A stretch of 64,000 nucleotides of DNA. Source: an uncultured Actinomycetota bacterium. GTDB taxonomy: Bacteria; Actinomycetota; UBA4738; HRBIN12. The notes under the pieces were generated by a model. That model saw only the letters and a list, made by a program, of their open reading frames with translations. It did not search any database and had not been told where the DNA came from. This document shows positions 27,733-64,000 of this stretch, piece after piece. The position numbers and the translations under genes are program-made. The DNA lies in the NCBI GenBank assembly GCA_963724415.1, contig CAVRUS010000011.1, forward strand, positions 256,561 to 320,560. The letters run 5' to 3'. How positions within the stretch are numbered: position 1 is the first letter of the stretch; each line of letters starts with the position of its first letter.

Positions 27733-27760
27733 CGCGTTCCCCCTCTCGCAGCCGGCGCGA

Positions 27761-28609: not shown

Positions 28610-28692
28610 GCGCTCGCTTGCTCCATGGGCGGGCGAATCATACAACCGGGCCTCGGAGGGCCTCGCGTCCCGGCTCGGCCCCCGCCTCCCAC

Positions 28693-28710
28693 TCGTGAAG
28701 GTTTTCACGA
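28693..28710. promoter_or_regulatory. Rex-type operator palindrome TCGTGAA-GGTT-TTCACGA in the divergent intergenic region between the b6f-like operon and ccdA
   Basis: Perfect inverted repeat matching the Rex operator consensus TTGTGAAnnnnTTCACAA; rex is encoded in this window. Confidence 0.6.
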
Positions 28711-28784
28711 GCAGGTCCACACTATGTCGCGCCCGGGGCTCAGACAACCCGGTGCGCGAGCACGGCGATGGGAAACTGAGCACG

Positions 28785-33249: not shown

Positions 33250-33281
33250 GACGGACCATGCGACGACGGAGCGGATGACCG

Positions 33282-43531: not shown

Positions 43532-44039
43532 GCGCGTCGAAGGACACGTCACCGGGCGGGGTCCCGAGGAGGTCGAGGAGGAGGTCCGCAAGGGCGTACT
43601 GCTGACCTCGCTCGACCGGGCGGTGAGCTGGGCGCGGAAGCAATCGATGTGGCCGGCGACGTTCGGGCTCGCCTGCTGCGCGATCGAGATGATGTCCGCG
43701 GGCGCCGGGCGGTACGACCTCTCCCGATGGGGGATGGAGCTGTTCCGGGCCTCGCCGCGCCAGGCGGATCTGATGATCGTGGCCGGGCGCGTCTCCCAGA
43801 AGATGGCGCCGGTCCTGCGCCGGGTCTACGACCAGATGCCCGAGCCCAAGTGGGTGATCTCGATGGGCGTGTGCGCATCCGCCGGCGGGATGTTCACGAA
43901 CTACGCGATCGTCCAAGGCGTGGACACGATCGTGCCGGTCGACATCTACGTGCCGGGCTGTCCGCCGAAGCCGGAGATGCTGATGTTCGGCATCCTGAAG
44001 CTCCAGGAGAAGGTGCGGACGACGGGGACGATCCGGTGA
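43512..44039 (+). CDS. nuoB: NADH-quinone oxidoreductase subunit B
   Basis: [10 protein letters not shown] and the CPPKPE N2-cluster cysteines. Confidence 0.9.
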
Positions 44040-44048
44040 AGGCGCCAG

Positions 44049-44549
44049 ATGCGGGCTGATGAGCTCGCGGCGCGCGTCGGCGAGCGATTCACCGACGTCC
44101 TGCTCGCACGTGACGAGGTCACCGTCGTCGTCGACCGAGACGACCTCGTCGATGCGCTCGTGCGACTCCGGGACCAACCCGACCTGTCGTTCGGGTTCCT
44201 CTCGAGCCTGACCGCGACCGATCACCTCGACCGGGAGCCCCGCTTCTGGGTGGTCTACGAGCTCCGGTCGGTGGAGCATGCTCACCGGATCCGCCTGAAG
44301 GTGGGGCTGCCCGCGGAGGATCCGCACATCCCCTCGGTCACGGCGCTCTTCCCGACGGCCGACTGGCACGAACGTGAGGCGTGGGACCTGTTCGGTGTCG
44401 TCTTCGACGGCCATCCCGACCTCGTTCGGATCCTGCTCCCCGACGATTGGGAGGGACATCCGCTCCGCAAGGACGAGGAGCTCGGGGGTGTCGAGACCCG
44501 GTACCACGGCGCGTTCATCCCACCCGTCGACGAACGGACGATGCCGTGA
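44049..44549 (+). CDS. nuoC: NADH-quinone oxidoreductase subunit C
   Basis: [19 protein letters not shown]...GHPLRKD motif. Confidence 0.9.
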
Positions 44550-45850
44550 TGGCGAGTGGGCACGAGATGTCGCATGCGCGCGACGGGCTCTCGCGCACGC
44601 CGGAGATCCGCGACGACGTCACCGGCGAGGTCCGCCAGGAGACGATGATCATCAACATGGGGCCGCAGCACCCCTCCACCCACGGGGTGCTCCGGTTGCT
44701 CCTCGAGCTCGACGGAGAGACGGTGATCCGGTGCCGGCCGATCGTCGGCTACCTCCACACCGGCATCGAGAAGAACACCGAGTACCGCACCTGGGTCCAG
44801 GGCGTGGCGTACGTGACCCGCGCCGACTATCTCTCCCCGTTCTTCAACGAGCTCGCGTACTGCCTGTCCGTCGAGCGCCTGCTCGGGATCGAGGCGCCGC
44901 CGCGGGCGCAGATCCTCCGGGTGCTCCTCTGCGAGCTGAATCGCATCGCCTCGCACCTCGTCTGGGTGGCCACCGGCGGGATGGAGCTGGGCGCCGTCTC
45001 CGTGATGCTCTATGGGTTCCGTGAGCGGGAGCTGATCCTCGACATCTTCGAGGCCGTCACCGGCCTTCGGATGAACCACGCCTACATCCGGCCCGGCGGC
45101 GTGATCATGGATCTGCCCGAGGACGGACCCCGCCGGATCGCGCGGTTCCTCGACGCGATGCCGGCGAGGATCGACGACTACGAACGGCTCCTGAACGACA
45201 ACCCGATCTGGCTCGAGCGGAACGTCGGCGTGGGCGTCCTGCAGGCGGACGAGGCGCTCGCGTGGGGCGTGACCGGGCCCCTCCTCCGGGCGGCCGGCGT
45301 CGCCGTCGACCTCCGCAAGGACGAGCCGTACAGCGGCTACGAGACCTACGACTTCGAGGTTCCGGTACGGACCGAGGCCGACTCCTACGCTCGGTACCTG
45401 GTCCGCATCGCGGAGATGCGGGAATCGCTCCGGATCGCCGAGCAGGCCCTCGCTCGCCTGGAGGAGCCGGGCCCGGTGATGGTCGAGGACCCGAAGGTGG
45501 GCTGGCCGGTGAAGCTCTCGGTCGGGCCCGACGGCATCGGCAACGACGAGGCGTATCTCCACCACATCATGGAGGAGTCGATGGAGGCACTGATCCATCA
45601 CTTCAAGATGGTGACCCAAGGGGTGCGTGTGCCCGCGGGGGAGGTCTACACGGCGGTCGAGTCGCCGCGGGGTGAGCTCGGCTTCTACGTCGTCTCCGCG
45701 GACGAGCACCGCCCGTACCGCGTCAAGATCCGCGACCCCTCGTTCGTGAACCTCCAGGCGGTCCCGACGATGGTGGAGGGTGGTCTGATCGCGGACGCGA
45801 TCGCGGTGATCGCCTCGCTCGACCCGGTGATGGGGGGCGTCGATCGCTGA
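44549..45850 (+). CDS. nuoD: NADH-quinone oxidoreductase subunit D
   Basis: Internal ATG by index arithmetic overlapping the nuoC stop; NuoD (49 kDa) motifs [13 protein letters not shown] and VESPRGELG. Confidence 0.9.
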
Positions 45851-46421
45851 TGACGGTCTTCGAGGGCACGCGGCTGGACGAGGCGAAGGAGATCATCGGC
45901 CGGTACCCGGAGGGACGCGAGCGCTCCGCGATCATGCCCCTGCTCTACCTCGCGCAGTCGATCGAGGGTCATGTCACGCGCGAGGGTCTGCGGGAGATCG
46001 CGGTGCTCCTCGGCCGGACGACGGCCGAGGTGGAGGCCGTCGCGACGTTCTACACGATGTTCCGACTCCGCCCGACCGGCACCCACGTGGTGAGCGTGTG
46101 CACGAACCTCGCCTGCATGCTCCGGGGCGGGCGCGAGGTGTACGAGGCGGCGCACGAGGCAGCCGGGATGCGCCACGGCCAGGAGCTGTCGGAGGACGGG
46201 CTGTTCACCCTGCACGAGGAGGAGTGCCTGGGCGTGTGCGACTTCGCGCCCGTCGCGCAGGTGAACTTCGCGAACCACGATCAGGTGACGCCCGAGCGGA
46301 TGGCGGAGCTGATCGCGGGGCTGCGCGACGGCTCCGTCCCGGAGCCGTCGCGCGGCCCCGCGATGGAGAGCTTCAAGGCCGCGTCGCGCGTGCTCGCCGG
46401 GTTGGAGGAGGTGCCGGCGTC

Positions 46422-46425
<4 letters not shown>
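45850..46425 (+). CDS. nuoE: NADH-quinone oxidoreductase subunit E
   Basis: [2Fe-2S] cysteines (VCTNLACM...CLGVCDFAP). Confidence 0.9.
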
Positions 46426-47717
<1,292 letters not shown>

Positions 47718-47781
47718 GCTGGCATCTCCGGGGGGCCGGGGGGGCCTACAAGCGAGGCCCCGAGCGCGTGGCGAGGCGGAC

Positions 47782-50226
47782 GTGATGCCGAGCGGCGGCC
47801 CCCCGAAGGAAGACGTGACGTTGTCGATCGACGGCAAAGAGGTCACGGTCCCGACGGGCACACTGATCATCCGCGCCGCGGAGCAGCTCGGCATCGAGAT
47901 CCCGCGCTTCTGCGACCATCCGTTCCTCGAGCCCGCCGGGGCGTGCCGCCAGTGCTACGTCCGGATCGAGGGCCAGCCGAAGCTCGCCACCTCGTGCACC
48001 GTGCCGGTCGCCGCGGGCATGTCGGTGATGACGCAGGCGAGCGACGAGGAGGTCGCCGACGCCCAGCGCGCGAACCTCGAGTTCCTCTTGCTGAACCATC
48101 CTCTCGACTGCCCGATCTGCGATCGCGGCGGCGAGTGCCCGCTGCAGGACCAGGCCCTCGCGTACGGGCCGGGGGACAGCCGGTTCCGGGAGGCGAAGCG
48201 CGTCTTCAAGAAGCCGATCCCGCTGTCACCGCTCGTGGCGCTCGACCGGGAGCGTTGCATCCTCTGCGCGCGCTGCACGCGGTTCTGCGACCAGATCTCG
48301 GGCGACCGCTTCCTGGAGCTCTACGCGCGGGGAGCGGGGGAGCGGGTCTCGATCGCGGCCGGGGAAGACTTCCGGTCGCCGTTCAGCGGCAACACCGTGC
48401 AGATCTGCCCGGTCGGGGCGCTGACCTCTGCGCCGTACCGGTTCGCCGCCCGGCCGTTCGATCTGACGTACGGCGACTCGGTCTGCCCGCACTGCTCGGC
48501 CGGCTGCAACATCCGGGTCGACCTCCGGCGCGGCGAGGTCGTCCGCCACCTCGCGCGCGATGAGTACGAGGTGAACGACGCGTGGGTCTGCGACAAGGGC
48601 CGCTACGCGTTCCGGTTCCCCGACTCGCCCGAGCGGGTCACGACGCCGCTGATCAGGGACCACGGCCTCGAGCCGGCCTCGTTCGGCGAGGTGCTCACGA
48701 CCATCGCGAGCTGGGTGGACGGCGCGCGCGTCGGCGTGCTGACCGGCGGCCGGCTGATGGACGAGGACTACTACGCGCTGTCGAAGCTCGCTCGAACGGT
48801 CTTCAAGACGAACGACCTCGACCATCGGCGGGACCACGGAGCCGGCCTCCTCGAGGGTGAGGTCGCTGCCGGCGGGATGGGCGTGACGTATCGCGACGTG
48901 GAACGAGCGAAGGTGATCCTCGTCGCGGGCCTGGACGCCGAGCAAGAGGTTCCCATCCTGCACCTCCGACTCCGGAAGGCGGCGGCCGCCGGCGCGCGGA
49001 TCGTGGTGCTGCACCCCCGCCGGACCCGCCTCTGGGACGTCGCCGAGCACATCGTGTGCCGTCCCGGCGACGAGACATTGCTCCTGATGAAAGAGGAGGG
49101 CCGTCCCCGGCCGGAGATCGCCGAGGTCGCGAGCGCGCTCCGCGAGGCGGGTGACGCGGGGCTCGTGATCGCGGGACCGCGGCTCGCCGATCAGCCCCAA
49201 GGGGTCGAGGTGGCGGCCTCGCTGGCGGCGGACACCGGGGCGCGATTCGCCTACGTCACCCGTCGCGCGAACGATCGCGGCGCGCTCGTGGCCGGGATCC
49301 ACCCGTCGCTCCTGCCGGGCGGACGTTGGGTCGGGAGCGCGGAGGATCGAACGGAAGTGGAGGACGTCTGGGGGTCGCTCGAGTCGTCCGAGGGCAGGGC
49401 CTGGCGAGGGATCCTCGAGGCCTGTGCCGACCGAGAGATCGACGTGCTGTTCCTGATCGGCGTCGACCCCCTCCGGGACTACCCGGATGCGGCGCTCGCG
49501 CGGCGTGCCCTGCAGAACGTGCCCCGGAAGGTGGTGCAATCGCTCGAGCTCGGCTCGCTCGAGTCGTTCGCGGATGTGTTCCTGCCCGCAGCGGCCTTCC
49601 TGGAGAAGGACGGGCACATCACCACCTGGGAAGGCCGCGGCCAGCGTCTCCACGCGGTTCGAGATCCGCTCGGGATGTCCCGTCCCGACTGGGAGATCTT
49701 CGCCAGTCTGGCGCTCGCCTGCGGAGGAGACCTCGGGTTCGAGACCGTGGACGAGCTCCACGAGGAGATGGGCAGACTCCTGGCGCCGCGGGAGTCGCGG
49801 TCGCCGTTGAGGGCACAACCCCTCACGATGCCCGCCCGCGTCGGTGACGGCGAGCTCCTCCTGTTCACCTACCCCCTGCTCGTCGATGAGGGCCGCCTCT
49901 CCGAGCGCGCCGACGAGCTGAAGGCGGCGCTCGCCGATCCGCCGTTCGCGGAGATCCATCCCGCCGACGCGGGGCGAGCGAACGTCGCCGACGGGGCCGA
50001 CGTGCGGCTCGCCACGGCCGCCGGCGAAGTCACGCTGCCGGTTCGCGTCACCGAGCACGTCGCGGAGGGCGCGGTCTTCGTCCCCTTCAACCAGGCAGGC
50101 TTCGCGGCCAACACGCTCCTCCAGGGCCACTTCTCGATCGCCGCGACGATCCAGCCGGTGGACGCGCCGACCGACACGGACGCGGTCGCCGAGGTGGCCG
50201 AGGCCGCCGCGGGAGGTACCGGGTAG
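47782..50226 (+). CDS. nuoG: NADH-quinone oxidoreductase subunit G
   Basis: 814 aa; N-terminal [2Fe-2S]/[4Fe-4S] cysteine motifs (CRQCYV; [13 protein letters not shown]; [11 protein letters not shown]). Confidence 0.9.
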
Positions 50227-51348
50227 ATGGACTGGCTCGACTGGCTGCTGCTCGCACTCCGTGTCGTGATCGTGTTCTTCGGGCTCCTGATCTCGGTGCT
50301 GCTCTACATCTGGTTCGAGCGCAAGGTGATCGCCGACTTCCAGACCCGCAAGGGGCCGATGCGCGCCGGGCCGCGCGGCATCCTCGTCACCCTCGCCGAC
50401 GGGATCAAGCTCTTCTTCAAGGAAGGCATCCTCCCGACGAACGCGGACAAGCCGATCTACCTGCTCGCCCCGGTCCTCGCGATGTTCCCGGCATTCCTCG
50501 CGTTCAGCACGATCCCGTTCGGCGACGACATCACGCTGTTCGGCCGGGAGGTCCCGCTGCAACTGGTCGACCTCGACATCGGCATCCTCTGGATCCTCGC
50601 GATGACCTCGATCGCCGTCTACGGCGTGGTCCTGGCGGGTTGGGCGAGCGGTTCGAACTACCCGCTCCTCGGCGCGGTCCGCTCCACCGCCCAGATGATC
50701 TCCTACGAGGTCGCGATGGGCCTGGCGCTCGTGGCCGTGCTGATGTACAGCGGCCACCTGTCGCTCTCCGAGATCGTCGACGCGCAGGATCGCGTGTGGA
50801 ACGTGGTCCCGATGTTCCCCGCGTTCGTGGTCTATCTGATCTGCGCGATCGCGGAGACCAACCGCCCGCCGTTCGATCTCGCCGAGGCCGAGACGGAGCT
50901 CGTGGCAGGGTTCCATACCGAGTACTCGGGGATCACGTTCGCGATGTTCTTCCTGGGCGAGTACGTCGCGACCGTGACGGTCGCCGCGATCGGCGTGACT
51001 CTGTTCCTCGGCGGGTGGCGAGGACCCGCGCCGGACTTCCTTCCCGGTCTGTGGCCGTTCCTCTGGTTCCTCCTCAAGGTCACCCTCGTGATCTACGTCT
51101 TCGTCCTCGTCCGGGGCACGCTCCCGCGCGTCCGCTACGACCGGCTGATGGCGTTCGGCTGGAAGCTGCTGATCCCGTTCGGGCTCGTCTGGGTCCTGAT
51201 CACCGGGGTGATCGTCGTGCTCCCCTCCGAGCTCGACCTCGACCGGGCGAGCGTGTTGACGTGGTCGGCCGTCGCGTTCGGAGTGGCGGTGCTCCTCTCG
51301 TTCATCCCGATCGGTCGGAAACCCACGAAGGAGGAGGTGGCCTCGTGA
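50227..51348 (+). CDS. nuoH: NADH-quinone oxidoreductase subunit H
   Basis: NuoH/ND1 motifs ([27 protein letters not shown]). Confidence 0.9.
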
Positions 51349-51845
51349 CGGACGAACCGCGGAAAGAGCGGACCTTCCTCGGCGATACGGGCGCGATCCT
51401 GAAGGGCATGGCGACGGTGTTCAAGCAGACGTTCCGCCACGACGACACCGAGGAGTACCCGAAGGTGATCGCCGAGATCCCCGAGCGCGCGCACACCGGC
51501 AGGCACCGGCTCAACCGTCACGAGAACGGCCTCGAGAAGTGCATCGGGTGCGAGCTCTGTGCGTTCGCGTGTCCGGCCGACGCGATCTGGGTCGAGGGGG
51601 AGGACAACGACCCCGAGCACCCCACCTCGCCGGGGGAGCGCTACGCGAAGGACTACCAGATCAACTACCTGCGCTGCATCATGTGTGGCCTCTGTGTGGA
51701 GGCGTGCCCGACGCGTGCGCTGACCCTCACCAACTACTTCGAGATGGCCTACACGTCCCGGGAGGACGCGATCCTCACGAAGGAGCAGCTCCTGGAGCCG
51801 CCGCCGGAGCTCGGGACCACGCCGGGGGCGAAGGAGGGCCTGTAG
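51345..51845 (+). CDS. nuoI: NADH-quinone oxidoreductase subunit I
   Basis: GTG by index arithmetic; two CxxCxxCxxxCP ferredoxin motifs. Confidence 0.9.
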
Positions 51846-51847
51846 GG

Positions 51848-52404
<557 letters not shown>

Positions 52405-52408
<4 letters not shown>

Positions 52409-52710
52409 GGACGCCGATCGCGTATTTCATCGTCCTGTCGGGGATCCTCTTCGCGCTCGGGACGCTCGGCGTGCTGCTCCGCAAGAACGCGCTGCTGATC
52501 TTCATGTCCATCGAGCTCCAGCTGAACGCGGTGAACCTGGCGCTGGTTGCGTTCTCGCGGATGCACCTCGCGCTCGACGGCCAGGTGCTGGCGTTCTTCT
52601 CGATGGTGGTGGCGGCCGCCGAGGTCGTGGTCGGTCTCGCGATCATCGTGGCGGTGTACCGGCGCCGGGGGACCGTCGACGTCGACGACGCGAGAGGGCT
52701 CGCAGGATGA
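52405..52710 (+). CDS. nuoK: NADH-quinone oxidoreductase subunit K
   Basis: 101 aa NuoK/ND4L ([17 protein letters not shown]...). Confidence 0.9.
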
Positions 52711-54639
52711 TCGCGCTGTCGCTCCTGCGGGCTCGCTCGATCGAGCTGGATCATCTGGCTGATCCCCGCGCTCCCGCTCGTCGCGGCAGCGGTCAACCTC
52801 TTCCTCGGGCGACGCCTCGGGCGATGGCGCCGGCTGGCTGGCGGCTTCGGCCGCGGTCGGCCTCTCGTTCCTTCGCCGTGTCGGCGCTGATCGTCGTCCG
52901 TTGCTCCTAGCGGAGCGCGGAGGACTCGCGCTCGTGCATCCAGCACCTGTTCGACTGGATCTCGGTCGGGAGCTTCAACGTCGGCGTCGATCTCCGGCTC
53001 GACGTGCTCTCCGCGACGATGATCCTCGTCGTCACCGGCATCGGTTTCCTGATCCACGTGTACGCGATCGGCTACATGGAGGGCGACCCGCGGTACGGGC
53101 GGTTCTTCGCGTACCTCAACCTGTTCGTGTTCTTCATGCTCCTGCTGGTCCTGGCGGACAACTACCTCCTCCTGTACGTGGGGTGGGAGGGCGTCGGCCT
53201 CTGCTCGTACCTCCTGATCGGCTTCTGGTTCGAGAAGACCGAGAACGCGATCGCGGCGAAGAAGGCGTTCGTCACGACCCGGATCGGCGACACGATGATG
53301 CTGGTCGGGCTCGCGCTGATCGTGAAGGAGTTCGGCTCGCTCGACTTCGGCGCCGTCCTCGGCGCGCCCGGGGAGACGATCGGCGAGGGGACGGCGACCG
53401 CGATCTCGTTGCTCCTGTTCGCCGGCGCGATCGGGAAGTCCGCGCAGGTCCCTCTGCACGTCTGGCTGCCGGACGCGATGGCCGGCCCCACGCCCGTCTC
53501 GGCGCTGATCCACGCCGCCACGATGGTGACCGCCGGCGTCTACCTCGTCGTGCAGGAGCGCGCCGCTCTTCGAGCTCTCAGGCATCGCCCTCACCGTCGT
53601 ACTCGATCGTGGGGCTCCTCACGATGCTCTTCGCCGCGCACCTGCGCGCTGGCGCAGGACGACATCAAGCGGGTCCTCGCGTACTCCACCATCAGCCAGC
53701 TCGGTTTCATGTTCATGGCCGCGGGCATGCGCTTCTACACCGGCGCGATCTTCATGCTCGTCGCCCACGCGTTCTACAAGGCGCTGATGTTCCTGGGCGC
53801 GGGCTCCGTGATGCACGGGACGCACGAGGAGACGGACCTCCAACGGATGGGCGGGCTGATCCGCAGGATGCCGGTCACGGGCTGGACGTTCCTCCTGGGG
53901 GCGTTCGCGCTGGCCGGGGTCTGGCCGCTCGCCGGGTTCTTCGCGAAGGATCAGATCCTCGAGGTCGCGAACCGCACCGGCCGGACGTGGGTCTACCTGC
54001 TGGGGACGCTGGGCGCACTCCTGTCCGCCCTGTACATCGGGCGTCTCTTGTTCCTGGCGTTCTTCGGACGGCCGAGGAGCGAGCAGGCCGAACATGCGCA
54101 CGAGTCGCCCGTCGTGATGACCGATCCCGCTCGTGGTCCTCGCCGCGGGCGACGATCATCGCCGGGCTCCTGCTGTCGACGAACGCCGAGGGGAGGCTCG
54201 CGACGTCGCTCGAGCCGGTGGTCGGGCCGCTGCCGGCGCACGAAGGCGGGCTTGTCGACGGCCGCCCTCCTGGTGATCGCGACCGCGATCGCGCTCGGCG
54301 CGCTCGCGGTCGCGTGGTGGGTGTACGCGTCCGGTCGGGTCGACTGGCTCGCGCTCCGGGAGCGGCTCCAGCCGCTGCCGCGCGCCGCGCGCAACGGCTG
54401 GTACGTCGATCAGCGCGTACTCCACGCTGTTCGTACAGCCCGGGCTCGCCGCGGCCCGGTTCTCGGCGAACGTCTTCGACACGAAGGTCGTCGACGGGCT
54501 CGTGAACGGGGTCGGCGCCGGGACGCGGCGGTTCGCCGCCGTTGCCCGCCGCATCCAGACAGGGTTCGTGCGCTCCTACGCGCTCGCGTTCCTCCTCGGC
54601 GCCGTCGGCGTCCTCGTCTGGCTGGGGACGCGGCTGTGA
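52707..54639 (+). pseudogene. nuoL: NADH-quinone oxidoreductase subunit L, disrupted by at least 10 frameshifts (pseudogene or assembly-error hotspot)
   Basis: NuoL-homologous peptide segments jump among all three frames: N-terminus 52707-53000 with about 5 shifts; 53555-53650 with 3 (APLFELSGIALTVVL / IVGLLTMLFAAHL / ALAQDDIKRVLAYS); 54130-54420 with 3 ending in the true C-terminus ...GAVGVLVWLGTRL* at 54639. Flanking nuoK and nuoM are intact. Confidence 0.7.
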
Positions 54640-56183
54640 ACAAGCTGCTCACCCTCACGACGTTCCTCCCGTTGCTCGGCGCCCTGATGGTGCTGGGCGG
54701 CGGCCGTGGGCTGAAGGACGGCGCCGCCCGCTGGGTCGCCCTCGGGGTGTCCGTGGCGACGTTCATCGTTTCGCTCGTCGTGCTCGGGCGCTTCGACCCG
54801 AGCTCCTCGGAGACGTTCCAGATGGTCGAGATCGCGCGGTGGGTCCCGTCGATCGGCCTGTCCTACGCCGTCGGCATCGACGGCCTCAGCATCTGGATGC
54901 TCCTGCTCACGACGTTCCTGTTCCCCGTCTCGATCCTGGCGTCCTGGACGATCACGAAGGACGTCCGGCGGTACCTCGCGGCGATCCTCGTGCTCGAGAC
55001 GGCGGTGATCGGCACGTTCGTCGCCCTCGACCTCCTGCTCTTCTTCCTGTTCTTCGAGGCCCTCCTCGTGCCGATGTACCTGTTGATCGGCGGGTGGGGC
55101 GGACAGCGGCGCATCTACGCCGCGATCAAGTTCTTCCTCTTCACGATGGCGGGCTCGGCGTTCCTGCTCGTCGCGATCCTGTTCCTCTACGTGCAGCAGG
55201 ACGGCCCCCGCCTGTTCGGCTACGGGGCGATGATGGACGCGGCCGCAGGCGTCCCGGTCACCACGGCCCGGTGGCTGTTCCTCGCGTTCTTCGTCGCGTT
55301 CGCGGTGAAGGTCCCGCTCGTGCCGCTGCACACGTGGCTGCCGGACGCGCACACGGAGGCGCCCACGGCGGGCTCGGTGCTGCTGGCGGCGCTCCTGTTG
55401 AAGGTGGGGACGTACGGGCTGATCCGGTTCAACCTGATGCTCTTCCCGGAGGCGTCGAAGTACTTCGCCACGTTCGTCGGCGTGATCGCCGTGATCGGCA
55501 TCGTCTACGGCGCCGTCAACGCCTTGATCCAGACCGACATCAAACGGTTGGTGGCGTATTCCTCCGTCTCGCACCTCGGCTTCGTGGTGCTGGGCGTGTT
55601 CGCGTTCACGCAGCAAGGGGTCACCGGCGGAGTGCTCCAGATGGTGAACCACGGCCTCGCGACGGGTGCGCTGTTCCTGCTGGTCGGGATGGTCTACGAG
55701 CGGACGCACACCCGGGACCTGGGGAGCATGGGCGGGCTCGCCTCGGTGATGCCGTGGCTGATGGGCGCGTTCCTGTTCACCGTGTTCGCCTCGGCCGGCC
55801 TCCCGGGGCTGAACGGCTTCGTCGGGGAGTTCCTCGTGATCGTCGGAACGTTCGCCGTGCACTCATGGTTCGGCGCGCTGGCCGCGACCGCGGTCGTCCT
55901 CGCCGCGATCTACCTCTTGTGGTCGTACCAGCGGATGGCGTTCGGCCCGGTCCGTGAGGAGCACCGCTCGCTGCCGGACGTGAGCCTTCGTGAGGTCGTG
56001 GTGCTGGCGCCGGTGCTGGCGCTCCTCCTCGTGTTCGGCGTGGCGCCGAAGCTGCTCACGGACCGGATCGATCCGGCCACCGAGGCCGTGATCGCCCGCG
56101 TCGCGCCGAACCATCAAACCGATGTCGGAGTGGCCGACCGGGCGATCGTGAACCCCTCGGCCGACGAGGAGGCCGCGCCGTGA
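54636..56183 (+). CDS. nuoM: NADH-quinone oxidoreductase subunit M
   Basis: In-frame GTG overlapping the nuoL stop (VNKLLTLTTFLPLLGA...); NuoM/ND4 motifs. Confidence 0.9.
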   Translation: MNKLLTLTTFLPLLGALMVLGGGRGLKDGAARWVALGVSVATFIVSLVVLGRFDPSSSETFQMVEIARWVPSIGLSYAVGIDGLSIWMLLLTTFLFPVSILASWTITKDVRRYLAAILVLETAVIGTFVALDLLLFFLFFEALLVPMYLLIGGWGGQRRIYAAIKFFLFTMAGSAFLLVAILFLYVQQDGPRLFGYGAMMDAAAGVPVTTARWLFLAFFVAFAVKVPLVPLHTWLPDAHTEAPTAGSVLLAALLLKVGTYGLIRFNLMLFPEASKYFATFVGVIAVIGIVYGAVNALIQTDIKRLVAYSSVSHLGFVVLGVFAFTQQGVTGGVLQMVNHGLATGALFLLVGMVYERTHTRDLGSMGGLASVMPWLMGAFLFTVFASAGLPGLNGFVGEFLVIVGTFAVHSWFGALAATAVVLAAIYLLWSYQRMAFGPVREEHRSLPDVSLREVVVLAPVLALLLVFGVAPKLLTDRIDPATEAVIARVAPNHQTDVGVADRAIVNPSADEEAAP

Positions 56184-57692
56184 TCGGACAGCAGGTGCTC
56201 CCGACCCCCGAGCTCGTCTTCGAGCCACTCCTGCCCGAGCTGGCTCTGGTGGTGTTCGCGATCCTCGGCCTCCTCTACGAGGCGTTCGCGAAGCGGTCCG
56301 AGCCCCTCGTCCACCTGTCGATCGGGCTCGTCGGGATCGCGCTCGCGGCGGCCACCAGCCTGTGGCTGTGGAGCTGGGAAGGGCCGGCCGGCGCGGTTCC
56401 GAACCAGCCCGTCACCGTGCTGGGCGGCGCGATCGTGTTCGACCGCTTCGCGGTCCTGTCCCGGCTCCTCCTGCTCGTCGTCGCCGCGCTCGGGCTGCTT
56501 CTGGGCCACCAGTACTTCGCGCGCTCCGAAGACGAGCAGCGCGGCGAGTTCGTCCCGCTGGTCCTGTTCGCGACGTCGGGGATGACGTTGATCGTGGCCT
56601 CCGCGGACCTGATCGTGATGTTCCTGGCGCTCGAGATCCTCTCCCTCGCCCTCTATGTCCTCACCGGGCTCACGGGCCGCCGGGCCGCGAACGAGGCATC
56701 GATGAAGTACTTCCTCCTCGGTGCGTTCAGCTCGGCGTTCTTCCTCTACGGCGTGGCCATGGCCTACGGGGCGACGGGCACGACGAAGATCGATGCGATG
56801 GCGATCGCCCTGACCGGCCGTGGCGGCACACAGGCGCTCGCGGTGCTCGGTCTCGCGCTCCTGGCGGTGGGCTTCGCCTTCAAGATCTCGGCGGCGCCGT
56901 TCCACATGTGGACGCCCGACGTCTACCAGGGCGCCCCGAGTCCGGTGACCGCCTTCATGTCGGCCGCGACGAAGATCGCCGCGTTCGCCGCGCTGATCCG
57001 GGTCCTCAACGTCGCGTTCCAAGCGCTCGCGTGGGACTGGGCACCGGTGGTGTGGGGGTTGGCGGCGGCTTCGGTGGTGGTCGGCAGCATCCTGGCGATC
57101 GCGCAGACGAACGTGAAACGGATGCTCGCGTACTCGAGCATCGCGCACGCCGGATTCATCCTGACCGGGCTGACGGCTCCAGGGTCCGAGGGCATCCGGG
57201 CCGCGATGTTCTACCTGGTGGCGTACGCCGCGATGACGATCGGGGCGTTCGGCACCGTGATGATCGTGTCGGGCCGGGGGGAGGAGCGGACCCGTATCTC
57301 TGACTACACCGGCTTGGCGAGGACGAACCCGATCGCGGCGGCGCTGATGACGCTCTTCCTGCTCTCGCTGGCCGGGATCCCGCCGACCGCGGGCTTCATC
57401 GCGAAGGTGACCGTGTTCACGGCGGCGATCGACGCCGGCTACTGGATCCTCGCCCTCGTGGGGGTGCTCGCCAGCGTCGCGGCCGCCTTCTTCTATCTTC
57501 GGGTGATCGTGCTGATGTACATGCAGGAGCCCGAGGTGGCGCCGGCGCCCGGAATCGCGGTCGCGCCTGGACCCGACGAGCGCCTCGATCGGCGCCATCC
57601 TGGCGATCCCTGCCGCCGCGACCCTGCTCCTCGGTGTGTTCCCCGGCTTGATCGTGGGCATCATCCAGGACGCCTCGGTGCTGCGATGGTGA
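56180..57692 (+). CDS. nuoN: NADH-quinone oxidoreductase subunit N with a C-terminal frameshift near 57560-57575
   Basis: Main frame runs to 57703 with a non-homologous tail; the conserved C-terminus (...SIGAILAIPAAATLLLGVFPGLIVGIIQDASVLRW*) is in another frame ending at 57692. Confidence 0.8.
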
Positions 57693-57699
57693 GGGCGCG

Positions 57700-58707
57700 A
57701 TGAGTCGCCGAGTGATCCCCGGTCTGGAATCGCCCGATCCCGTCTTGGAGTCGGAGATCCGGGCGCGCCTGGACCGCGTGGAAGAGGCGCTCCACAAGGC
57801 GCTGGAGGAGGCGGACTCCCAGCTGCTGTCCGCCACGGCGAACTACCTCCTGACCGCCGGCGGCAAGCGCTTCCGCCCGATGCTCGCCCTCCTCTCCGGG
57901 TACTTCGGCGACCCGTCGGACCCGCGCCTGATCCCCGCGTCGGTGTCCCTGGAGCTCGTCCACGTCGCCACGCTCTACCACGACGACGTGATCGACGAAG
58001 CGGAGTCGCGCCACGGGGTTCCTGCGGCCAACGTGCGGTGGGACAACACGGTCGCGATCCTCACGGGCGACTACCTGTTCGCCCGCGCGTCGGAGGTGGG
58101 CGCCGATCTCGGCCCCGAGGTCTGCCGCATCCTGGCGCAGACGATCGCGGTCCTCTGCGACGGGCAGATCCGCGAGGTCGATGCCTCTCGCCGTCTGGAC
58201 CAGACCGAGGCCAACTACCTCGAGGTGATCCGCCGGAAGACCGGGGCGCTGATCGCGACGTCCTGCCGGCTCGGCGCGATGATGTCGGACGCGCCGCCCG
58301 AGCACGTCGACATCCTGGGTGCCTTCGGCGAATCGCTCGGCCTGGCCTTCCAGCTCTCCGACGACATCATGGACATCACCTCCAGTCAGCTCGAGCTCGG
58401 GAAGGAGCCCGGGGTCGATATGAAGGAGGGGGTGTATACGCTCCCCGTGCTCCACGCCCTGGATACCTCCCCGCATCGCGAGGAGCTGGCGCGGATCCTG
58501 ACCACGGGCGTCGAGGGCGAGCTCCTCGACCGTGCGCTCGAGATCGTCGCGGACGCCGACTCGATCGAGCACGCTCGGACGGCGGTCCGCGACGAGGTCG
58601 CGCGCGCGGTCACGCTGGTCGAGCGGCTCCCGTCGGGGCCCGCCCAGCACGCGTTGGTGCAGCTCGCGCGCTTCCTTTCGGCACGGTGTGGGGCGGACGG
58701 AACATGA
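57700..58707 (+). CDS. Polyprenyl diphosphate synthase (long-chain, HepT/GrcC1-like)
   Basis: Aspartate-rich motifs (LYHDDVIDEAESRHG and FQLSDDIMD). Confidence 0.85.
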   Translation: MSRRVIPGLESPDPVLESEIRARLDRVEEALHKALEEADSQLLSATANYLLTAGGKRFRPMLALLSGYFGDPSDPRLIPASVSLELVHVATLYHDDVIDEAESRHGVPAANVRWDNTVAILTGDYLFARASEVGADLGPEVCRILAQTIAVLCDGQIREVDASRRLDQTEANYLEVIRRKTGALIATSCRLGAMMSDAPPEHVDILGAFGESLGLAFQLSDDIMDITSSQLELGKEPGVDMKEGVYTLPVLHALDTSPHREELARILTTGVEGELLDRALEIVADADSIEHARTAVRDEVARAVTLVERLPSGPAQHALVQLARFLSARCGADGT

Positions 58708-58764: not shown

Positions 58765-59130
58765 GTGCCTGACTACTACTCGTCCTACGGTGTCGTGCTG
58801 GCGGTCGTGGCCGCGGGAGCGATCCTCGTCGCGGTGGCGTTCACCGCCGCGCGTCTGATCGCCCCTCACCGACCGCTCCCCGCCAAGCTCACCACCTACG
58901 AGTGCGGGATCGACCCCGTCGGTGAGGGCTGGTCGCAGAGTCAGATCCGCTACTACGTCTTCGGGTTCCTGTTCGTGATCTTCGACGTCGAGGCCGTGTT
59001 CCTCTTCCCCTGGGCACGTGTCTTCGAGAGCCTCGGCTGGGCAGCGGTGGTCGAGATGGGCATCTTCATCGGGATCCTCGCGACCGGCCTCCTCTACGCG
59101 TGGCGCAAGGGGGTCGTGCGGTGGGCCTGA
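58765..59130 (+). CDS. nuoA: NADH-quinone oxidoreductase subunit A, second copy
   Basis: [40 protein letters not shown]. Confidence 0.85.
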
Positions 59131-59627
59131 TCACCGAGAAGACCCCGCTCCCGAAGATCCAGCCCGTGAAGTTCCTGCTGAACTGGGGCCGGCGGTACTC
59201 CTTGTGGGTGATGAACTTCGGCCTCGCGTGCTGCGCGATCGAGCTGATCGCCACCTCCACCTCCAAGCACGACTTCATCCGCCTCGGCGTGATCCCGTTC
59301 GCGCACGGCCCCCGCCAGGCGGACCTCCTCGTCGTGGCCGGGACCCTGACCGACAAGATGGCGCCGGCGCTCAAACGCGTCTACGACCAGATCCCGGACC
59401 CGAAGTACGTGATCTCGTTCGGCTCCTGCTCGAACTGCGGCGGTCCCTACTGGGACTCGTACTCGGTGACCAAGGGCGTCGACCAGATCGTGCCGGTCGA
59501 CGTCTACGTGCCCGGTTGCCCGCCGCGCCCCGAAGCTCTGCTGCACGGGATCGTGAAGCTGCAGGAGAAGATCAAGGACGAGGACATCCAGGAGAAGTGG
59601 GCGAGTGGCCACAGCGCTGTCTCCTGA
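59100..59627 (+). CDS. nuoB: NADH-quinone oxidoreductase subunit B, second copy
   Basis: GLACCAIEL...[10 protein letters not shown]...PGCPPRPE; the start may be GTG 59121 rather than 59100. Confidence 0.85.
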
Positions 59628-60126
59628 GGACGTGGAGTCGCGTCTGCGGGCGCGGTTCGGCCAGGACATCCTCGCGTTCGAGGTGCAGCACGGGCACGCC
59701 GTGGCGACCGTCGGTGCCGACCGGTACCGCGACGTCTGCCGGTTCCTCCGCGACGAGCCCGAGTTCGCCTGCGACTACTGCGACTTCACCGGCGGCGTCG
59801 ACTTCGGTCCGGAACGCGGCTTCGAGGTCGTCACCCACCTGTACTCGACCGCGCACCATCACAACGTCCGCATCAAGGTGCAGGTCCCGCACGACGACCC
59901 GGTCTGCCCGACGGTCTCCGACCTGTTCCCCACCTCGGACTGGCACGAGCGGGAGACGATGGAGATGTTCGGGATCCGCTTCGAGGGCCACCCGAAGCCC
60001 GTGAAGCTCCTGCTCTCCGAGCCGTTCGAGGGCCAGCCCCTGCGGAAGGACTTCCCGCTGATGACCCGCGAGGTCAAGCCCTGGCCCGGGCTCGTGGAGG
60101 GCGAAGACGTGGAGGACGACGAGTGA
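59605..60126 (+). CDS. nuoC: NADH-quinone oxidoreductase subunit C, second copy (no nuoD follows)
   Basis: [19 protein letters not shown]...GQPLRKD; the gene immediately downstream is nuoH. Confidence 0.85.
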
Positions 60127-61130
60127 TCCTGGCCGAGACCGGCGTCTCGGTCTTCTCCTCGCTCTTCGAGAACTTCTGGGTCGTCCTGTTGCTGAAGACG
60201 GTCGCCGTGATGGGGTTCTTCCTGGTCGTCCCGCTCGGCGTCGGCTACGTGGAGCACAAGGGCCTCGCCCACATGCAGGCGCGGCTCGGACCGATGGAGG
60301 CCGGGGCGTTCCACGGGTGGGCCCAGCTCGTCGCCGACGGCGTGAAGTTCATCCAGAAGGAAGACGTGATCCCCGCGGCCGCGGACCGCAACGTGTTCTC
60401 CCTCGCGCCGGCGGTGGCGATGATCCCGTACATCGCGATCCTCGTCGTGCTGCCGATCAGCGACTCGTGGTTCGCGGAGGACCTCGACGTGGGGATCTTC
60501 TTCGTGCTGGCGATGTCCAGCATCTCGGTGATCGGCATCATGATGGCCGGCTGGTCCTCCGCGAACAAGTTCTCCCTGATCGGTGCGCTCCGCGCGGCCG
60601 CGCAGCTGATCGCGTACGAGCTGCCGCTGGTGATCGCCGCGGCCGCCATCGTGATGCAGGCCGGCACACTGTCGATGATCGGGATCGTCGAGGCGCAGCA
60701 GGACCTCTGGTTCATCATCCCGCAGTTCCCGGGCTTCCTGATCTTCATGATCGCCGCGTTCGCCGAGCTGCAGCGGCCGCCGTTCGACATGCCGATCGCC
60801 GACTCCGAGATCATCTTCGGCGCCTACACCGAGTACACGGGCCTGAAGTTCGCGTTCTTCCTGCTCGCCGAGTACGGCGGGATCGTGGCGTTCTCCGGGA
60901 TCGCAGCGGTCCTGTACCTCGGCGGCTACCAACCGCTCCCCGGCATCCCGATCCCCGGGCCGCTGATGATGATGGGCAAGATCGGGGCGCTCGCCTTCTT
61001 CTTCATCTGGCTGCGGGCGACGTATCCGCGGCTCCGCGAGGACCAGCTCCAGCGCTTCTCGTGGCTCGCGTTGATCCCCCTGTCCCTGGCGCTGATCATG
61101 GGCGTGGCGGTGGCGAAGGTGGCGTTCTAG
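60123..61130 (+). CDS. nuoH: NADH-quinone oxidoreductase subunit H, second copy
   Basis: AELQRPPFDMPIADSEIIFGAYTEYTG. Confidence 0.9.
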   Translation: MILAETGVSVFSSLFENFWVVLLLKTVAVMGFFLVVPLGVGYVEHKGLAHMQARLGPMEAGAFHGWAQLVADGVKFIQKEDVIPAAADRNVFSLAPAVAMIPYIAILVVLPISDSWFAEDLDVGIFFVLAMSSISVIGIMMAGWSSANKFSLIGALRAAAQLIAYELPLVIAAAAIVMQAGTLSMIGIVEAQQDLWFIIPQFPGFLIFMIAAFAELQRPPFDMPIADSEIIFGAYTEYTGLKFAFFLLAEYGGIVAFSGIAAVLYLGGYQPLPGIPIPGPLMMMGKIGALAFFFIWLRATYPRLREDQLQRFSWLALIPLSLALIMGVAVAKVAF

Positions 61131-61634
61131 ATGCCGGAGCAGACGCGCAAGCGCGGGACCGGGCTCGGGCTCGCCAAGGGCCTGTCGGTCACACTCAAGA
61201 CGATGCTGCAGCCGGCGGTCACGCAGCAGTACCCGCGCGTGAAGCCGGATCTCCCACCCCGGACCCGGGGTGTGATCGCGCTGAAGGAGGCCAACTGCAC
61301 CGTCTGCTACAAGTGCTCCCGCGAGTGCCCCGATTGGTGCATCTACATCGACGCGCACAAGGAGACGCACGATCCTGCGGGCGGCGGTCGCGCGCGGTCC
61401 GCCAAGGTGCTCGATCGCTTCGCGATCGACTACGCCCTGTGCATGTACTGCGGGATCTGCGTCGAGGTGTGTCCGTTCGACGCCCTGTTCTGGAGTCCGG
61501 AGTTCGAGTACGGCGAGTACGACCTCGACCTGATGACCCATGAGAAGGAGCGCCTCGAGGACTGGACGTACACCGTCCTGCCCCCGCCGGCCCTGGAAGA
61601 AGGCGCCGAGCCCACGGAGGAACAGGCGTCGTGA
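61131..61634 (+). CDS. nuoI: NADH-quinone oxidoreductase subunit I, second copy
   Basis: [12 protein letters not shown] and [12 protein letters not shown]. Confidence 0.9.
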
Positions 61635-62131
61635 CGGCGCAGGAGTACGCGTTCGCGGTGATCGCGGCGGTGGGATCGATCAGCGCGATCGCGGTCGTGA
61701 CCGCCCGCAACGTCGTGCACGCCGCCCTCTACCTCGTCGTCGCGCTCCTCTCGGTCGGCGCGACGTTCCTCCTCCTCGGCGCGGAGTTCGCCGGCTGGGT
61801 CCAGATCCTGATCTACGTCGGCGCGATCGTGATCCTGTTCCTCTTCGGCCTGATGCTCACGAAGGCGCCGATCGGCCGCGACACGCTCGACAACGCACAT
61901 CGGTGGGTCGGGCTGCTGGTGGCCGCCGGCATCTTCGCCGGGTTGGTGTTCCTGATCCAGGAGGCCTTCCCGCTCGACGAGGAGCCGTTCGAGGTCTTCC
62001 GCTCCACGACAGACGCGGTGGGGCAGTCGATGTTCCGCGACTTCATCCTGCCGTTCGAGGCGATCTCGTTCCTGCTGCTCGCGGCGCTGATCGGGGCGAT
62101 CGTGCTCGCGCGCAAGGACGAGGGGAACTGA
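61631..62131 (+). CDS. nuoJ: NADH-quinone oxidoreductase subunit J, second copy
   Basis: NuoJ TM pattern; 4-nt overlap with nuoI2. Confidence 0.85.
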
Positions 62132-62132
62132 C

Positions 62133-62435
62133 GTGATCCGTCTGCCCTTCGTCCTGCTGTTCGCGGCCCTGCTCTTCTCGGCAGGCGTGTACGGAGTGCT
62201 CGCTCGCCGGAACGCGGTGATGGTCCTGATGGCGATCGAGCTGATGCTGAACGCCGTGAACGTGAACCTGGTGGCGTTCTCGTCGTCGCTGCACGACGTG
62301 GGCGGGCAGATCTTCGCGCTCTTCGTGATCGCGGTCGCCGCGGCCGAGGTCGGGATCGGCCTCGCGATCGTGATCCTGCTGTTCCGGAACCGGGCCTCGA
62401 TCAACGTGGACGAGGTGAACCTCCTCAAGTGGTAG
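62133..62435 (+). CDS. nuoK: NADH-quinone oxidoreductase subunit K, second copy
   Basis: AIELMLNAVNVNLVAFS. Confidence 0.9.
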   Translation: MIRLPFVLLFAALLFSAGVYGVLARRNAVMVLMAIELMLNAVNVNLVAFSSSLHDVGGQIFALFVIAVAAAEVGIGLAIVILLFRNRASINVDEVNLLKW

Positions 62436-64000
62436 CAGCCGAGACGACCGCCGCCACCGGCGCGATCCAGTACGCGTGGGTGGTCGCCCTCCTCCCGGTC
62501 GTCGCGGCCGTCTTCACGCTCGTGTTCGGCAAGCGCATCCCGGGGAAGGGGGCCGCGTTCGGGATCCTCGCCCTCGCCGCTGCGCTCGCCCTCGCGCTCG
62601 CGGTCCTGTGGCACTTCGTGACCGGCGGAGGCCCGTACGAGTCCTCGATCGATTGGTTCCAGATCGGGCCGCTGCACGTCGAGGTGGGCCAGTACGTCGA
62701 CGGCCTCACCGCCGCGATGCTGATCGTCGTGACCTCGGTGTCGCTCGCGGTCCATGTCTACTCCCTCGGCTACATGCACGGCGATGTGCGGTTCACGTGG
62801 TTCTACGTCGTCCTGTCCCTGTTCACCTCCGCGATGCTCGTCGTCGTGATCGCCAACAACCTGGTCATGCTGCTGGTGGGCTGGGAGGTGATGGGCGTCT
62901 GCTCCTACCTCCTGATCGGTCACTGGTTCGAAGAGCACGAGAACTCGAGCGCCGCGATCAAGGCGTTCATCACGACGCGGATCGGCGACGTCCCGTTCAT
63001 GTTCGGGATCTTCGCGTTGATCTTCGCCACGGGGTTCACGACGGCGAACATCCAGGAGATCGGCGAGGTGATCGGCGGACCCGAGGTCTCTGCCGCGTTC
63101 GTGACCGTGGCGGCGCTGCTCTTGTTCGGCGGGGCGATCGGGAAGTCGGCGCAGTTCCCGCTGCACGTCTGGTTGCCGGACGCCATGGCCGGTCCAACCC
63201 CCGTCTCGGCGTTGATCCACGCCGCGACGATGGTCGCGGCCGGCGTCTACCTGGTGGGTCGGATGTTCGAGGTGTTCGTCCACGCGGATCCGTGGGTCCT
63301 GACGTTCGTGGCCACGATCGCGGCGATCACCACTTTGGGGGCGGCGTTCCTCGCGTTCGTGCAGGACGACATCAAACGCGTGCTCGCCTACTCCACCCTG
63401 TCCCAGCTCGCCTACATGGTGGCCGGGCTCTCGATGGGGCCCGAAGGGGTGACCGCCGGCTTCTTCCACCTGTTCACCCACGCTTTCTTCAAGGCACTGT
63501 TGTTCTTGGGTGCAGGCTCGGTGATCCACGCCGTGCACTCGAACAACATGAGCGAGATGGGCGGGCTGCGGAAACAGATGCCCGTCACGTTCTGGACGTT
63601 CCTGATCGGCTCCCTCGCGCTGGCAGGCTTCTTCCCCCTCGCGGGATTCTGGTCCAAGGATGAGTTGCTCGCAGGCGCGTGGGCGAACAGTCAGGGCTTG
63701 TTCTGGATCCTGCTGCTGACCGCCGTGCTGACGGCGTTCTATATGACCCGATGCGTGCTTCTGACGTTCTTCGGCAGCTACCGCGGCGCTCAGCATCCGC
63801 ACGAGTCGCCGCCCGTGATGACCGGGCCGCTCGTCGCCCTCGCCGGAGCCACGATCGTCGTGGGCTTCTTGGGGGCGCCCCAGCTGGGCGGCGTGTTCGG
63901 CGACTGGGTGTACTTCGAGCATCCGCACGAAGCCGAGTTCCTCTATTGGGTCGCGATCGTGGGGACGATCGCCGCGCTGATCGGTTTCGGGATCGGTTAC
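62429..64000 (+). CDS. nuoL: NADH-quinone oxidoreductase subunit L, second copy, intact, 3'-truncated by the window edge
   Basis: GTG overlapping the nuoK2 stop; read continuously in one frame to the window end (WLPDAMAGPTPVSALIHAATMVAAGVYLV...). Confidence 0.8.
   Translation, partial: MVAAETTAATGAIQYAWVVALLPVVAAVFTLVFGKRIPGKGAAFGILALAAALALALAVLWHFVTGGGPYESSIDWFQIGPLHVEVGQYVDGLTAAMLIVVTSVSLAVHVYSLGYMHGDVRFTWFYVVLSLFTSAMLVVVIANNLVMLLVGWEVMGVCSYLLIGHWFEEHENSSAAIKAFITTRIGDVPFMFGIFALIFATGFTTANIQEIGEVIGGPEVSAAFVTVAALLLFGGAIGKSAQFPLHVWLPDAMAGPTPVSALIHAATMVAAGVYLVGRMFEVFVHADPWVLTFVATIAAITTLGAAFLAFVQDDIKRVLAYSTLSQLAYMVAGLSMGPEGVTAGFFHLFTHAFFKALLFLGAGSVIHAVHSNNMSEMGGLRKQMPVTFWTFLIGSLALAGFFPLAGFWSKDELLAGAWANSQGLFWILLLTAVLTAFYMTRCVLLTFFGSYRGAQHPHESPPVMTGPLVALAGATIVVGFLGAPQLGGVFGDWVYFEHPHEAEFLYWVAIVGTIAALIGFGIGY

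Follow-up and report, generated by a model that had tools for sequence, protein, structure and literature searches.

A nuoD-less nuo2 operon directly behind nuo1 in an uncultured actinobacterium, and a probable stand-alone NuoD2 partner

We analysed a stretch of 64,000 nucleotides (nt), here called the window, from an uncultured Actinomycetota bacterium (GenBank assembly GCA_963724415.1, contig CAVRUS010000011.1, positions 256,561 to 320,560 of the forward strand; about 70% G+C). It carries two sets of complex I (nuo) genes. The first, cluster 1 or nuo1, is a complete canonical set. The second, cluster 2 or nuo2, lies behind it on the same strand and has no gene for the subunit NuoD. We consider it probable that nuo2 is a ten-gene operon of Actinomycetota which arose from an 11-subunit ancestor and still encodes a working enzyme, with its NuoD coming from a stand-alone nuoD2 gene elsewhere.

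Gene families were assigned with Pfam and NCBIfam. Cluster 2 consists of nuoA2-B2-C2-H2-I2-J2-K2-L2 (58765-64000, plus strand), and its eight genes are intact and tightly packed (Table 1). Neighbours overlap or abut at A2/B2, B2/C2, C2/H2, I2/J2 and K2/L2. The nuoC2 stop codon overlaps the nuoH2 start (GTGA), so there is no room for a nuoD between them, and no nuoD, E, F or G was found in the cluster. A preliminary description had proposed a second collinear, partial nuo set behind nuoN and a polyprenyl synthase, with the 173-amino-acid (aa) NuoC2 followed directly by nuoH2 and with NuoD, E, F and G missing. The coordinates, the Pfam/NCBIfam assignments, the GTGA overlap and tblastn bear out this picture. 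The NuoD of cluster 1 (NuoD1) was the sole NuoD detected in the 64 kb by tblastn with NuoD1 and two NuoD2-type queries, and within the window NuoE, F and G belong to cluster 1 only.

Table 1. Coordinates of nuo2, of the linked nuo1 and hepT genes and of other respiratory genes in the window
Feature	Position	Strand	Basis or remark
nuoA2, 121 aa	58765..59130	+	Oxidored_q4, E 2.5e-35
nuoB2, 175 aa (GTG 59100) or 168 aa (GTG 59121)	59100..59627	+	Oxidored_q6; NuoB subfamily 225 bits, cut-off 116
nuoC2, 173 aa	59605..60126	+	Complex1_30kDa only, E 3e-39
nuoH2, 335 aa	60123..61130	+	NADHdh, E 1.9e-99; NuoH equivalog 310 bits, cut-off 305
nuoI2, 167 aa	61131..61634	+	Fer4 families, NuoI models; two CxxCxxCxxxCP motifs
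nuoJ2, 166 aa	61631..62131	+	Oxidored_q3, E 9e-40
nuoK2, 100 aa	62133..62435	+	Oxidored_q2, E 8e-30
nuoL2, 5' part, ~524 of ~650 codons (GTG 62429), continues past the window end	62429..64000	+	NuoL equivalog 570 bits, cut-off 556
Cluster 1, complete canonical nuoA-N	43025..57703	+	tblastn pairing of paralogues; Pfam for A, B, C, D, E, G
NuoD1 (long form, Tyr87), in cluster 1	~44561-45850	+	tblastn, sequence, alignment
hepT, polyprenyl (heptaprenyl-type) diphosphate synthase	57700..58707	+	Pfam polyprenyl_synt, E 1e-61
Rex	23062-23745		
Cytochrome c	24644-25663	minus	farther downstream of the cytochrome b gene
Cytochrome b/b6 N-terminal-type	26962-27837	minus	after the ferredoxin-domain gene
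2[4Fe-4S] ferredoxin domain	27761-28156	minus	
DsbD/ResB/CcsA cytochrome c biogenesis	28470-32055		
CoxII-cytochrome c and CoxI	32638-35177		
CtaG	35988-36974		
COX15/CtaA-like and UbiA protein, 483 aa	38490-39941	minus	see text
Second polyprenyl synthase	40410-41279		
FAD-dependent reductase	41781-43028		directly upstream of nuoA1

To judge whether the cluster is functional we looked at its divergence, its key residues and the selection acting on it. The nuo2 proteins share 29-55% identity with their cluster 1 paralogues (43% for NuoA, 54.5% for NuoB). The ratio of nonsynonymous to synonymous substitution rates (dN/dS) was measured against four close relatives (L044, L078, L125, L012) at dS 0.2-0.6, and for all seven complete genes in the window it fell between 0.00 and 0.23. 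The individual ranges were 0.05-0.08 for NuoA2, 0.00-0.04 for NuoB2, 0.07-0.12 for NuoC2, 0.05-0.10 for NuoH2, 0.02-0.05 for NuoI2, 0.11-0.23 for NuoJ2 and 0.03-0.13 for NuoK2. The NuoB2 protein is 100% identical in L044, L078 and L125, where dN/dS is about 0.00-0.01.

Residues were checked in NuoB2, NuoI2, NuoK2 and NuoH2. NuoB2 keeps all four cysteine ligands of cluster N2, its CC...C...C pattern aligning with NDUFS7. Both CxxCxxCxxxCP motifs of NuoI2 and both membrane glutamates of NuoK2 are present, and the whole of NuoH2 can be aligned with NuoH and ND1 chains of solved structures; the alignment takes in the conserved loop PFDMPIADSEIIFGAYTEY and the canonical glutamate motifs.

These data bear on the idea that cluster 2 arose by recent duplication of cluster 1, lost D, E, F and G and is now turning into pseudogenes. 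The partial gene set and its position next to cluster 1 would suit such an origin. However, the paralogues are just 29-55% identical, the frames are intact and translationally coupled, dN/dS is low throughout, and the layout without nuoD is kept across deep clades with 100% bootstrap support (see below). The tests refute decay, and we give this explanation practically no weight.

The sequence past 64 kb was taken from six metagenome contigs (L001-L006) with 94-96% nucleotide identity to the window. Downstream they carry L2 (~650 aa), M2 (~515 aa) and N2 (~490-520 aa), and thus both nuoM2 and nuoN2, for which the preliminary description had suggested looking. After N2 follow an M48 peptidase, an aminotransferase, YajQ and RibD_C. 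The nuo2 operon would therefore comprise ten genes, A2-B2-C2-H2-I2-J2-K2-L2-M2-N2, because all six contigs continue with L2-M2-N2 and then pass into unrelated genes. No nuoD-like sequence or input module was found in these 10 kb downstream, and a nuoD2 just past the window, which the preliminary description had allowed for, was not detected there by tblastn. Taken over the operon itself, the 58 kb upstream and the 10 kb downstream, we found no NuoD near nuo2 other than NuoD1. In the same six contigs, which come from ENA, the large antiporter-like nuoL/M/N genes of both clusters are split by frameshifts, while those of the window are unbroken. The breaks look like errors of long-read assembly and not like biology.

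Next, we asked how widely such operons occur. The NuoC2 tail consists of a family-specific C-terminal motif followed by a 10-residue acidic tail. An exhaustive profile search with NuoC2 defined the motif as PLRK[DE]FxLx[ST]Rx[AV]KPWPG, and NuoC1 does not have it. The back-translated motif was scanned over one genome per GTDB species and matched at least 120 loci. Among the matches listed, all but one were labelled Actinomycetota or "bacterium". They included Micromonospora, Actinoplanes, Dactylosporangium, Kribbella, Glycomyces and Yinghuangia (Streptomycetaceae), Nocardioidaceae, Aeromicrobium, Acidimicrobiia, Microthrixaceae, Ilumatobacter, Nitriliruptorales and Egibacteraceae, one Solirubrobacterales metagenome-assembled genome (MAG) and many unclassified soil MAGs. 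The closest to the window among them were the four soil MAGs used for dN/dS. The NuoC2 cluster of the window has 415 members. The B2, H2 and I2 proteins of the window share 55-84% identity with those of Micromonospora, Kribbella and Yinghuangia.

The one exception among the listed matches was a MAG labelled Bauldia sp. (Alphaproteobacteria; L085). Near-identical nuo2 proteins also occur in MAGs labelled Candidatus Polarisedimenticolia and Myxococcota (P0688, P0706, besides L085). These copies are probably misbinned contigs and not real transfers.

Several relatives depart from the compact form. Many NuoC2 proteins (P0176-P0238) have disordered acidic or Pro/Ala/Glu-rich tails of 200-450 aa after KPWPG, and a 277-aa NuoI2 (L101) bears a similar tail. 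Long NuoC2-like proteins (350-630 aa) were considered as NuoD or NuoH fusions and rejected, the extra length being disordered tails. In Micromonospora, nuo2 is interrupted by ~2.5-5 kb of unrelated genes between nuoB2 and nuoC2 (L054, with similar gaps in L007, L008, L022 and L036). The insert in Micromonospora sp. CA-249363 (L054, 3442-7317) holds a gene for a 438-aa protein and, on the opposite strand, a dehydrogenase-like one. A second gap lies between H2 and I2, and no nuoA2 match was found upstream of B2. Micromonospora NuoB2 is still 81-84% identical to that of the window.

The preliminary description had noted that partial nuo2 clusters are known in some actinomycetes, and the Streptomyces literature agrees: streptomycetes have nuoA-N and a second operon with nuoA2, B2 and H2-N2 but without the NADH-module (N-module) genes, and their nuoD2 is encoded elsewhere (PMC3765725, PMC8388888). 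By sequence, the window operon belongs to this Actinomycetota nuo2 type, that of Streptomyces nuoA2-N2, the link being made through Yinghuangia and the literature. The window operon adds a member from an uncultured soil lineage, placed in tandem with nuo1, to a kind of operon already annotated in Streptomyces. In S. coelicolor we take the nuo2 operon to be SCO4599-4608 and nuoD2 presumably to be SCO3392, although our literature search gave no confirmation of the latter. That search returned nothing functional on NuoD-less complexes, SCO4599-4602 or SCO3392.

Mapping the window proteins onto the family loci revealed two layouts. In the first, nuoD is missing as in the window; these D-less operons include those of Yinghuangia, Micromonospora and Kribbella. 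In the second, a NuoD homologue (NuoD2) lies between C2 and H2, which gives the exact 11-gene order A-B-C-D-H-I-J-K-L-M-N. It was found at 17 loci among the matches listed (Acidimicrobiia, Nitriliruptoria, unclassified MAGs) and in further metagenome operons, in two of which (L127 and L128) nuoN1 and hepT also precede the operon.

A tree of NuoB2+H2+I2 (583 columns, 200 replicates) was computed by neighbour joining and rooted with the nuo1 copies of the window. In this comparison with cluster 1, of the sort suggested in the preliminary description, nuo2 forms a single clade apart from the nuo1 outgroup. The D2-containing operons are basal. The D-less operons fall into two clades with 100% bootstrap support each, one holding class Actinomycetes (Longispora, Yinghuangia, Actinopolymorpha, Aeromicrobium, Nocardioidaceae) and the other the window. 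The two were monophyletic together in none of the 200 replicates, and the Actinomycetes clade grouped with Nitriliruptoria and L127/L128 in 80% of them. Because the D2 operons are basal and the D-less clades never monophyletic, the ancestor of nuo2 was most likely an 11-gene operon without an NADH module and with its own NuoD2 between C2 and H2, and nuoD2 appears to have left the operon twice, independently, as judged by neighbour joining. As an aside, a metagenome contig from another organism of lower G+C (L160, JGI contig Ga0315282_10003322, GC 0.46) has, at 8643-21068, nuoA-B-C-D and directly after it nuoA-B-C-D-H-I-J-K-L-M-N, which amounts to two adjoining copies of the Q-module genes.

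To see what the detached subunit would look like, NuoD2 was aligned with T. thermophilus Nqo4 and NuoD1 (T. thermophilus numbering). NuoD2 keeps His38, and the Arg in HGVLR is invariant. At the position of Tyr87 it has Trp (NR[HI]DW as against RxDY), while every solved complex I has Tyr. It is also a short form, without the 41-residue NuoD1 segment that contains the MEALIHHFK helix. Among 84 metagenome NuoD genes, Trp was present in 23/23 copies of the actinobacterial NuoD2 family, both in operons (L013, L017, L024, L037, L071 and others) and stand-alone (in the range L129-L141); the genome-derived copies aligned earlier have it likewise. The short form is common to 45 of the 84, from EFG-less operons of other phyla, and all 45 have Tyr. 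The 16 insert-bearing genes all have Tyr too, and most of them adjoin nuoE in the locus map. Since the short form is shared by EFG-less NuoD and Trp is restricted to the actinobacterial family, the alignments place nuo2 in the 11-subunit class, with a predicted lineage-specific change at the quinone site.

We then searched for stand-alone (orphan) nuoD2 genes by scanning JGI metagenomes with an alignment of NuoD2 only and mapping the results, with up to 10 kb on each side. On eight high-G+C contigs (L129, L130, L133-L137, L141) a NuoD2-type gene stands alone, the mapped locus containing no further nuo gene. Each of the eight shows the NRHDW signature and is of the short form. Their dN/dS of 0.11-0.20 indicates purifying selection. 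They form two clades with 100% support each, and these join the in-operon D2 of Nitriliruptoria and L127/L128 in one larger clade (93%). The D-less operons sit in the matching part of the operon tree (100%). Two D-less operon clades are thus mirrored by two orphan D2 clades, a strong pattern and the one that relocation would predict.

The neighbours of clade ii, recognised by reading open reading frames (ORFs), are ftsH, folE, folP and hpt-like genes, a synteny in keeping with class Actinomycetes and with what is reported for Streptomyces. In soil, clade i is abundant (one cluster at 90% has 330 members), and wherever its members are named they are 'Actinomycetota bacterium' MAGs, as in the clade of the window. 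Its conserved neighbourhood reads PBP, WhiB, NfeD, WhiB, RidA, SelB, SelA, NuoD2, Methyltransf_28, a gene of beta-lactamase fold and Crp. Searching with a profile built from four orphan D2 proteins recovered clade i only and no named cultured organisms. A homology search seeded with Nitriliruptoraceae NuoD2 returned only Nitriliruptoraceae relatives at least 80% identical, and no orphans.

In clade i, nuoD2 adjoins or lies within 3 kb of the Methyltransf_28 gene (PF02636; L207 11227-12339, L208/L209 11193-12518, L129 ~1970-3043, L210 13870-14928). We take PF02636 to be the NDUFAF7/MidA methyltransferase family, with the NuoD homologue NDUFS2 as substrate. The adjacency may be a mere conserved neighbourhood.

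What, then, supplies NuoD to nuo2 in the window? The genome most likely carries an orphan nuoD2, because Streptomyces nuoD2 is separate, relatives keep D2 in the operon and orphans from soil Actinomycetota occupy the matching tree position. Established complex I structures point the same way. The quinone chamber is built from the N2 cluster of NuoB and the loops of NuoH, and forms only together with NuoD; NuoC carries no cofactor, and what it is known to do is pack against NuoD. NuoB2, C2 and H2 are conserved, and therefore a NuoD-type partner should be needed, most likely the detached NuoD2.

The partner could instead be NuoD1. The preliminary description had suggested that nuo2 shares NuoD and the N-module with cluster 1, in which case its subunits would assemble with NuoD1, possibly also NuoEFG, into another NADH:menaquinone oxidoreductase that differs in its membrane arm. 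The location is compatible with this: nuo1, hepT and nuo2 directly follow one another on the same strand, the hepT ATG overlaps the nuoN1 stop (nuoN1 ends at 57703), the gap from hepT to nuoA2 is 57 nt, and NuoD1 is the sole NuoD from 58 kb upstream to 10 kb downstream of nuo2. No terminator-like site was found between nuo1 and nuo2, all terminator-like matches falling within coding regions, and a hairpin in the gap from hepT to nuoA2 lacks significance (z = -1.5). The order nuoN1-hepT-nuoA2 is kept in the clade of the window and in some D2-containing relatives. However, NuoB2 is 75-79% identical to NuoB2 of D2-containing operons as against 54.5% to NuoB1, and has not drifted toward a NuoD1-compatible partner. 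The D-less operons of Micromonospora, Kribbella and others are not beside nuo1, and Streptomyces keeps a separate nuoD2 (PMC3765725, PMC8388888). Furthermore, the orphan D2 genes are under selection and have no obvious partner except D-less nuo2 operons. Sharing of NuoD1 therefore gained no support from our results, and we regard it as possible but unlikely.

Another alternative is that nuo2 works without any NuoD, for instance as an ion-translocating module, or that single subunits such as L2, M2 and N2 are swapped into complex I. Subunit swapping was proposed in Streptomyces by analogy with the cyanobacterial NdhD and NdhF variants (PMC3765725), and no NuoD lies in or near the operon. Against this stands the full parallel set under strong purifying selection, including NuoC2, NuoB2 with all N2 ligands and NuoI2 with both clusters. 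In the established structures NuoC packs against NuoD, and N2 and the quinone-channel loop of NuoH2 would make little sense on their own. We know of no member of the complex I/membrane-bound hydrogenase superfamily without a NuoD-type subunit. We find this explanation improbable, more so than sharing of NuoD1.

We therefore return to the detached NuoD2, for which we propose the following model. nuoD2 would have left the operon in the lineage of the window, and a complete proton-pumping, complex-I-like enzyme would still be built. The operon would supply the membrane arm (A, H, J, K, L, M, N) together with NuoB2, NuoC2 and NuoI2, and the stand-alone nuoD2 elsewhere in the chromosome would supply NuoD. 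Since NuoEFG are absent from cluster 2, NADH would not be the donor through an N-module of its own. Judging from other 11-subunit enzymes, the likeliest route is a small donor, ferredoxin-type or other, that docks near NuoI2. The acceptor is presumably menaquinone, bound at a site altered by the Tyr87 to Trp change in NuoD2.

Several points weigh against this model. We found no contig or MAG with both a D-less nuo2 of the clade of the window and an orphan nuoD2; a co-occurrence check on NCBI protein accession blocks (TMK, HEX and HET series) and whole-genome shotgun prefixes (JBOGVA versus JBOGVU and JBOGVZ) gave no match. The tetranucleotide correlation with the window was 0.84 for the orphan contig L130, compared with 0.81 for a same-species control and 0.47-0.73 for the other orphan contigs, but the signal is not specific, as the D2-containing L127 and L128 score 0.82-0.84. 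Clade i is assigned to the clade of the window, and clade ii to Actinomycetes, indirectly, by labels, abundance and the ftsH/fol synteny, and the D2 tree gives no firm internal branching order. The position of nuo2 directly behind nuo1 without a terminator-like signal would suit sharing of NuoD1 equally. Finally, our literature search gave no biochemical study of any nuo2 complex.

As for the surroundings, the window is a respiratory gene island that includes nuo1, hepT and nuo2 together with cytochrome, oxidase and prenyl-chain genes at 22-43 kb (Table 1). Its 483-aa protein has a COX15/CtaA-like N-terminal part and a UbiA prenyltransferase domain, and seems to unite a heme A synthase-like and a heme O synthase-like part in one fused chain. 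The cytochrome b, 2[4Fe-4S] ferredoxin and cytochrome c set (24.6-28.2 kb) was considered as a partner of nuo2, since the preliminary description had suggested pairing with a ferredoxin/b6f-like system. We rejected it: the set is ~30 kb away on the opposite strand, and we found nothing that links it to nuo2. No Rieske gene was noticed among the ORFs scanned around it.

The nuo2 family spans several Actinomycetota classes, from cultured Micromonospora, Kribbella, Actinoplanes and Streptomycetaceae to abundant uncultured soil lineages. The seeming paradox of the missing NuoD most likely has its answer in a gene elsewhere. The predicted 11-subunit ancestry, the changed quinone-site residue of NuoD2 and the stand-alone nuoD2 make up a concrete subunit list for purification or cryo-electron microscopy from a cultured carrier. 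They also call for caution in soil MAG reconstructions, where a D-less nuo2 should be taken neither for an incomplete operon or pseudogene nor for an ordinary NADH dehydrogenase. A more tentative idea, which we hold as possible though short of probable, is that nuo2 and the detached NuoD2 form a distinct respiratory enzyme of soil Actinomycetota and not a spare complex I. It is based on the Trp in all 23 NuoD2 copies, the missing NADH module and the apparent double relocation of nuoD2. If this is true, the acceptor or donor chemistry could be altered, for example to ferredoxin- or F420H2-driven menaquinone reduction, or assembly could be controlled through a separately regulated catalytic subunit, whose gene in clade i has an NDUFAF7-like methyltransferase gene among its neighbours.

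Compared with known systems, the window operon is closest in plan to Streptomyces nuo2. The gene order and the missing D, E, F and G are the same, and the likeness runs through the NuoC2 motif and through Yinghuangia (L092, Streptomycetaceae) in the common nuo2 tree. However, Streptomyces nuo2 is at a separate locus, whereas the window operon lies directly behind nuo1 and hepT. The NuoC2 of the window is short and without the long disordered tail of many Actinomycetes copies. The operon also belongs to the other D-less clade than the class-Actinomycetes operons, and its loss of nuoD2 appears to be independent.

The 11-subunit enzymes (cyanobacterial/chloroplast NDH-1 and bacterial nuoABCDHIJKLMN) likewise have no N-module, and the 45 NuoD genes from EFG-less operons of other phyla are of the short form, as is NuoD2. 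These 45 differ in having Tyr87 where the NuoD2 copies have Trp, and the window operon has ten genes and no NuoD. We saw no accessory subunits of the cyanobacterial type with nuo2. Fpo, the F420H2 dehydrogenase of methanogens, also has a core of the 11-subunit type, to which an input subunit docks separately. With the FpoC, H, I, J, K and L models the nuo2 proteins stay under threshold (38-405 bits, cut-offs 110-1050) and score lower than with the Nuo models, and no FpoF or FpoO gene was found in or near the operon in the window and related loci. With canonical 14-subunit complex I (cluster 1, T. thermophilus Nqo1-14), nuo2 shares ten homologous core subunits and keeps the N2, N6a and N6b ligands and the charged membrane-arm residues checked in NuoH2 and NuoK2. 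It differs from it in having no NuoE, F or G, and thus no NADH site, in having no NuoD in the operon, and in the Trp at position 87 of the NuoD2 of its family.

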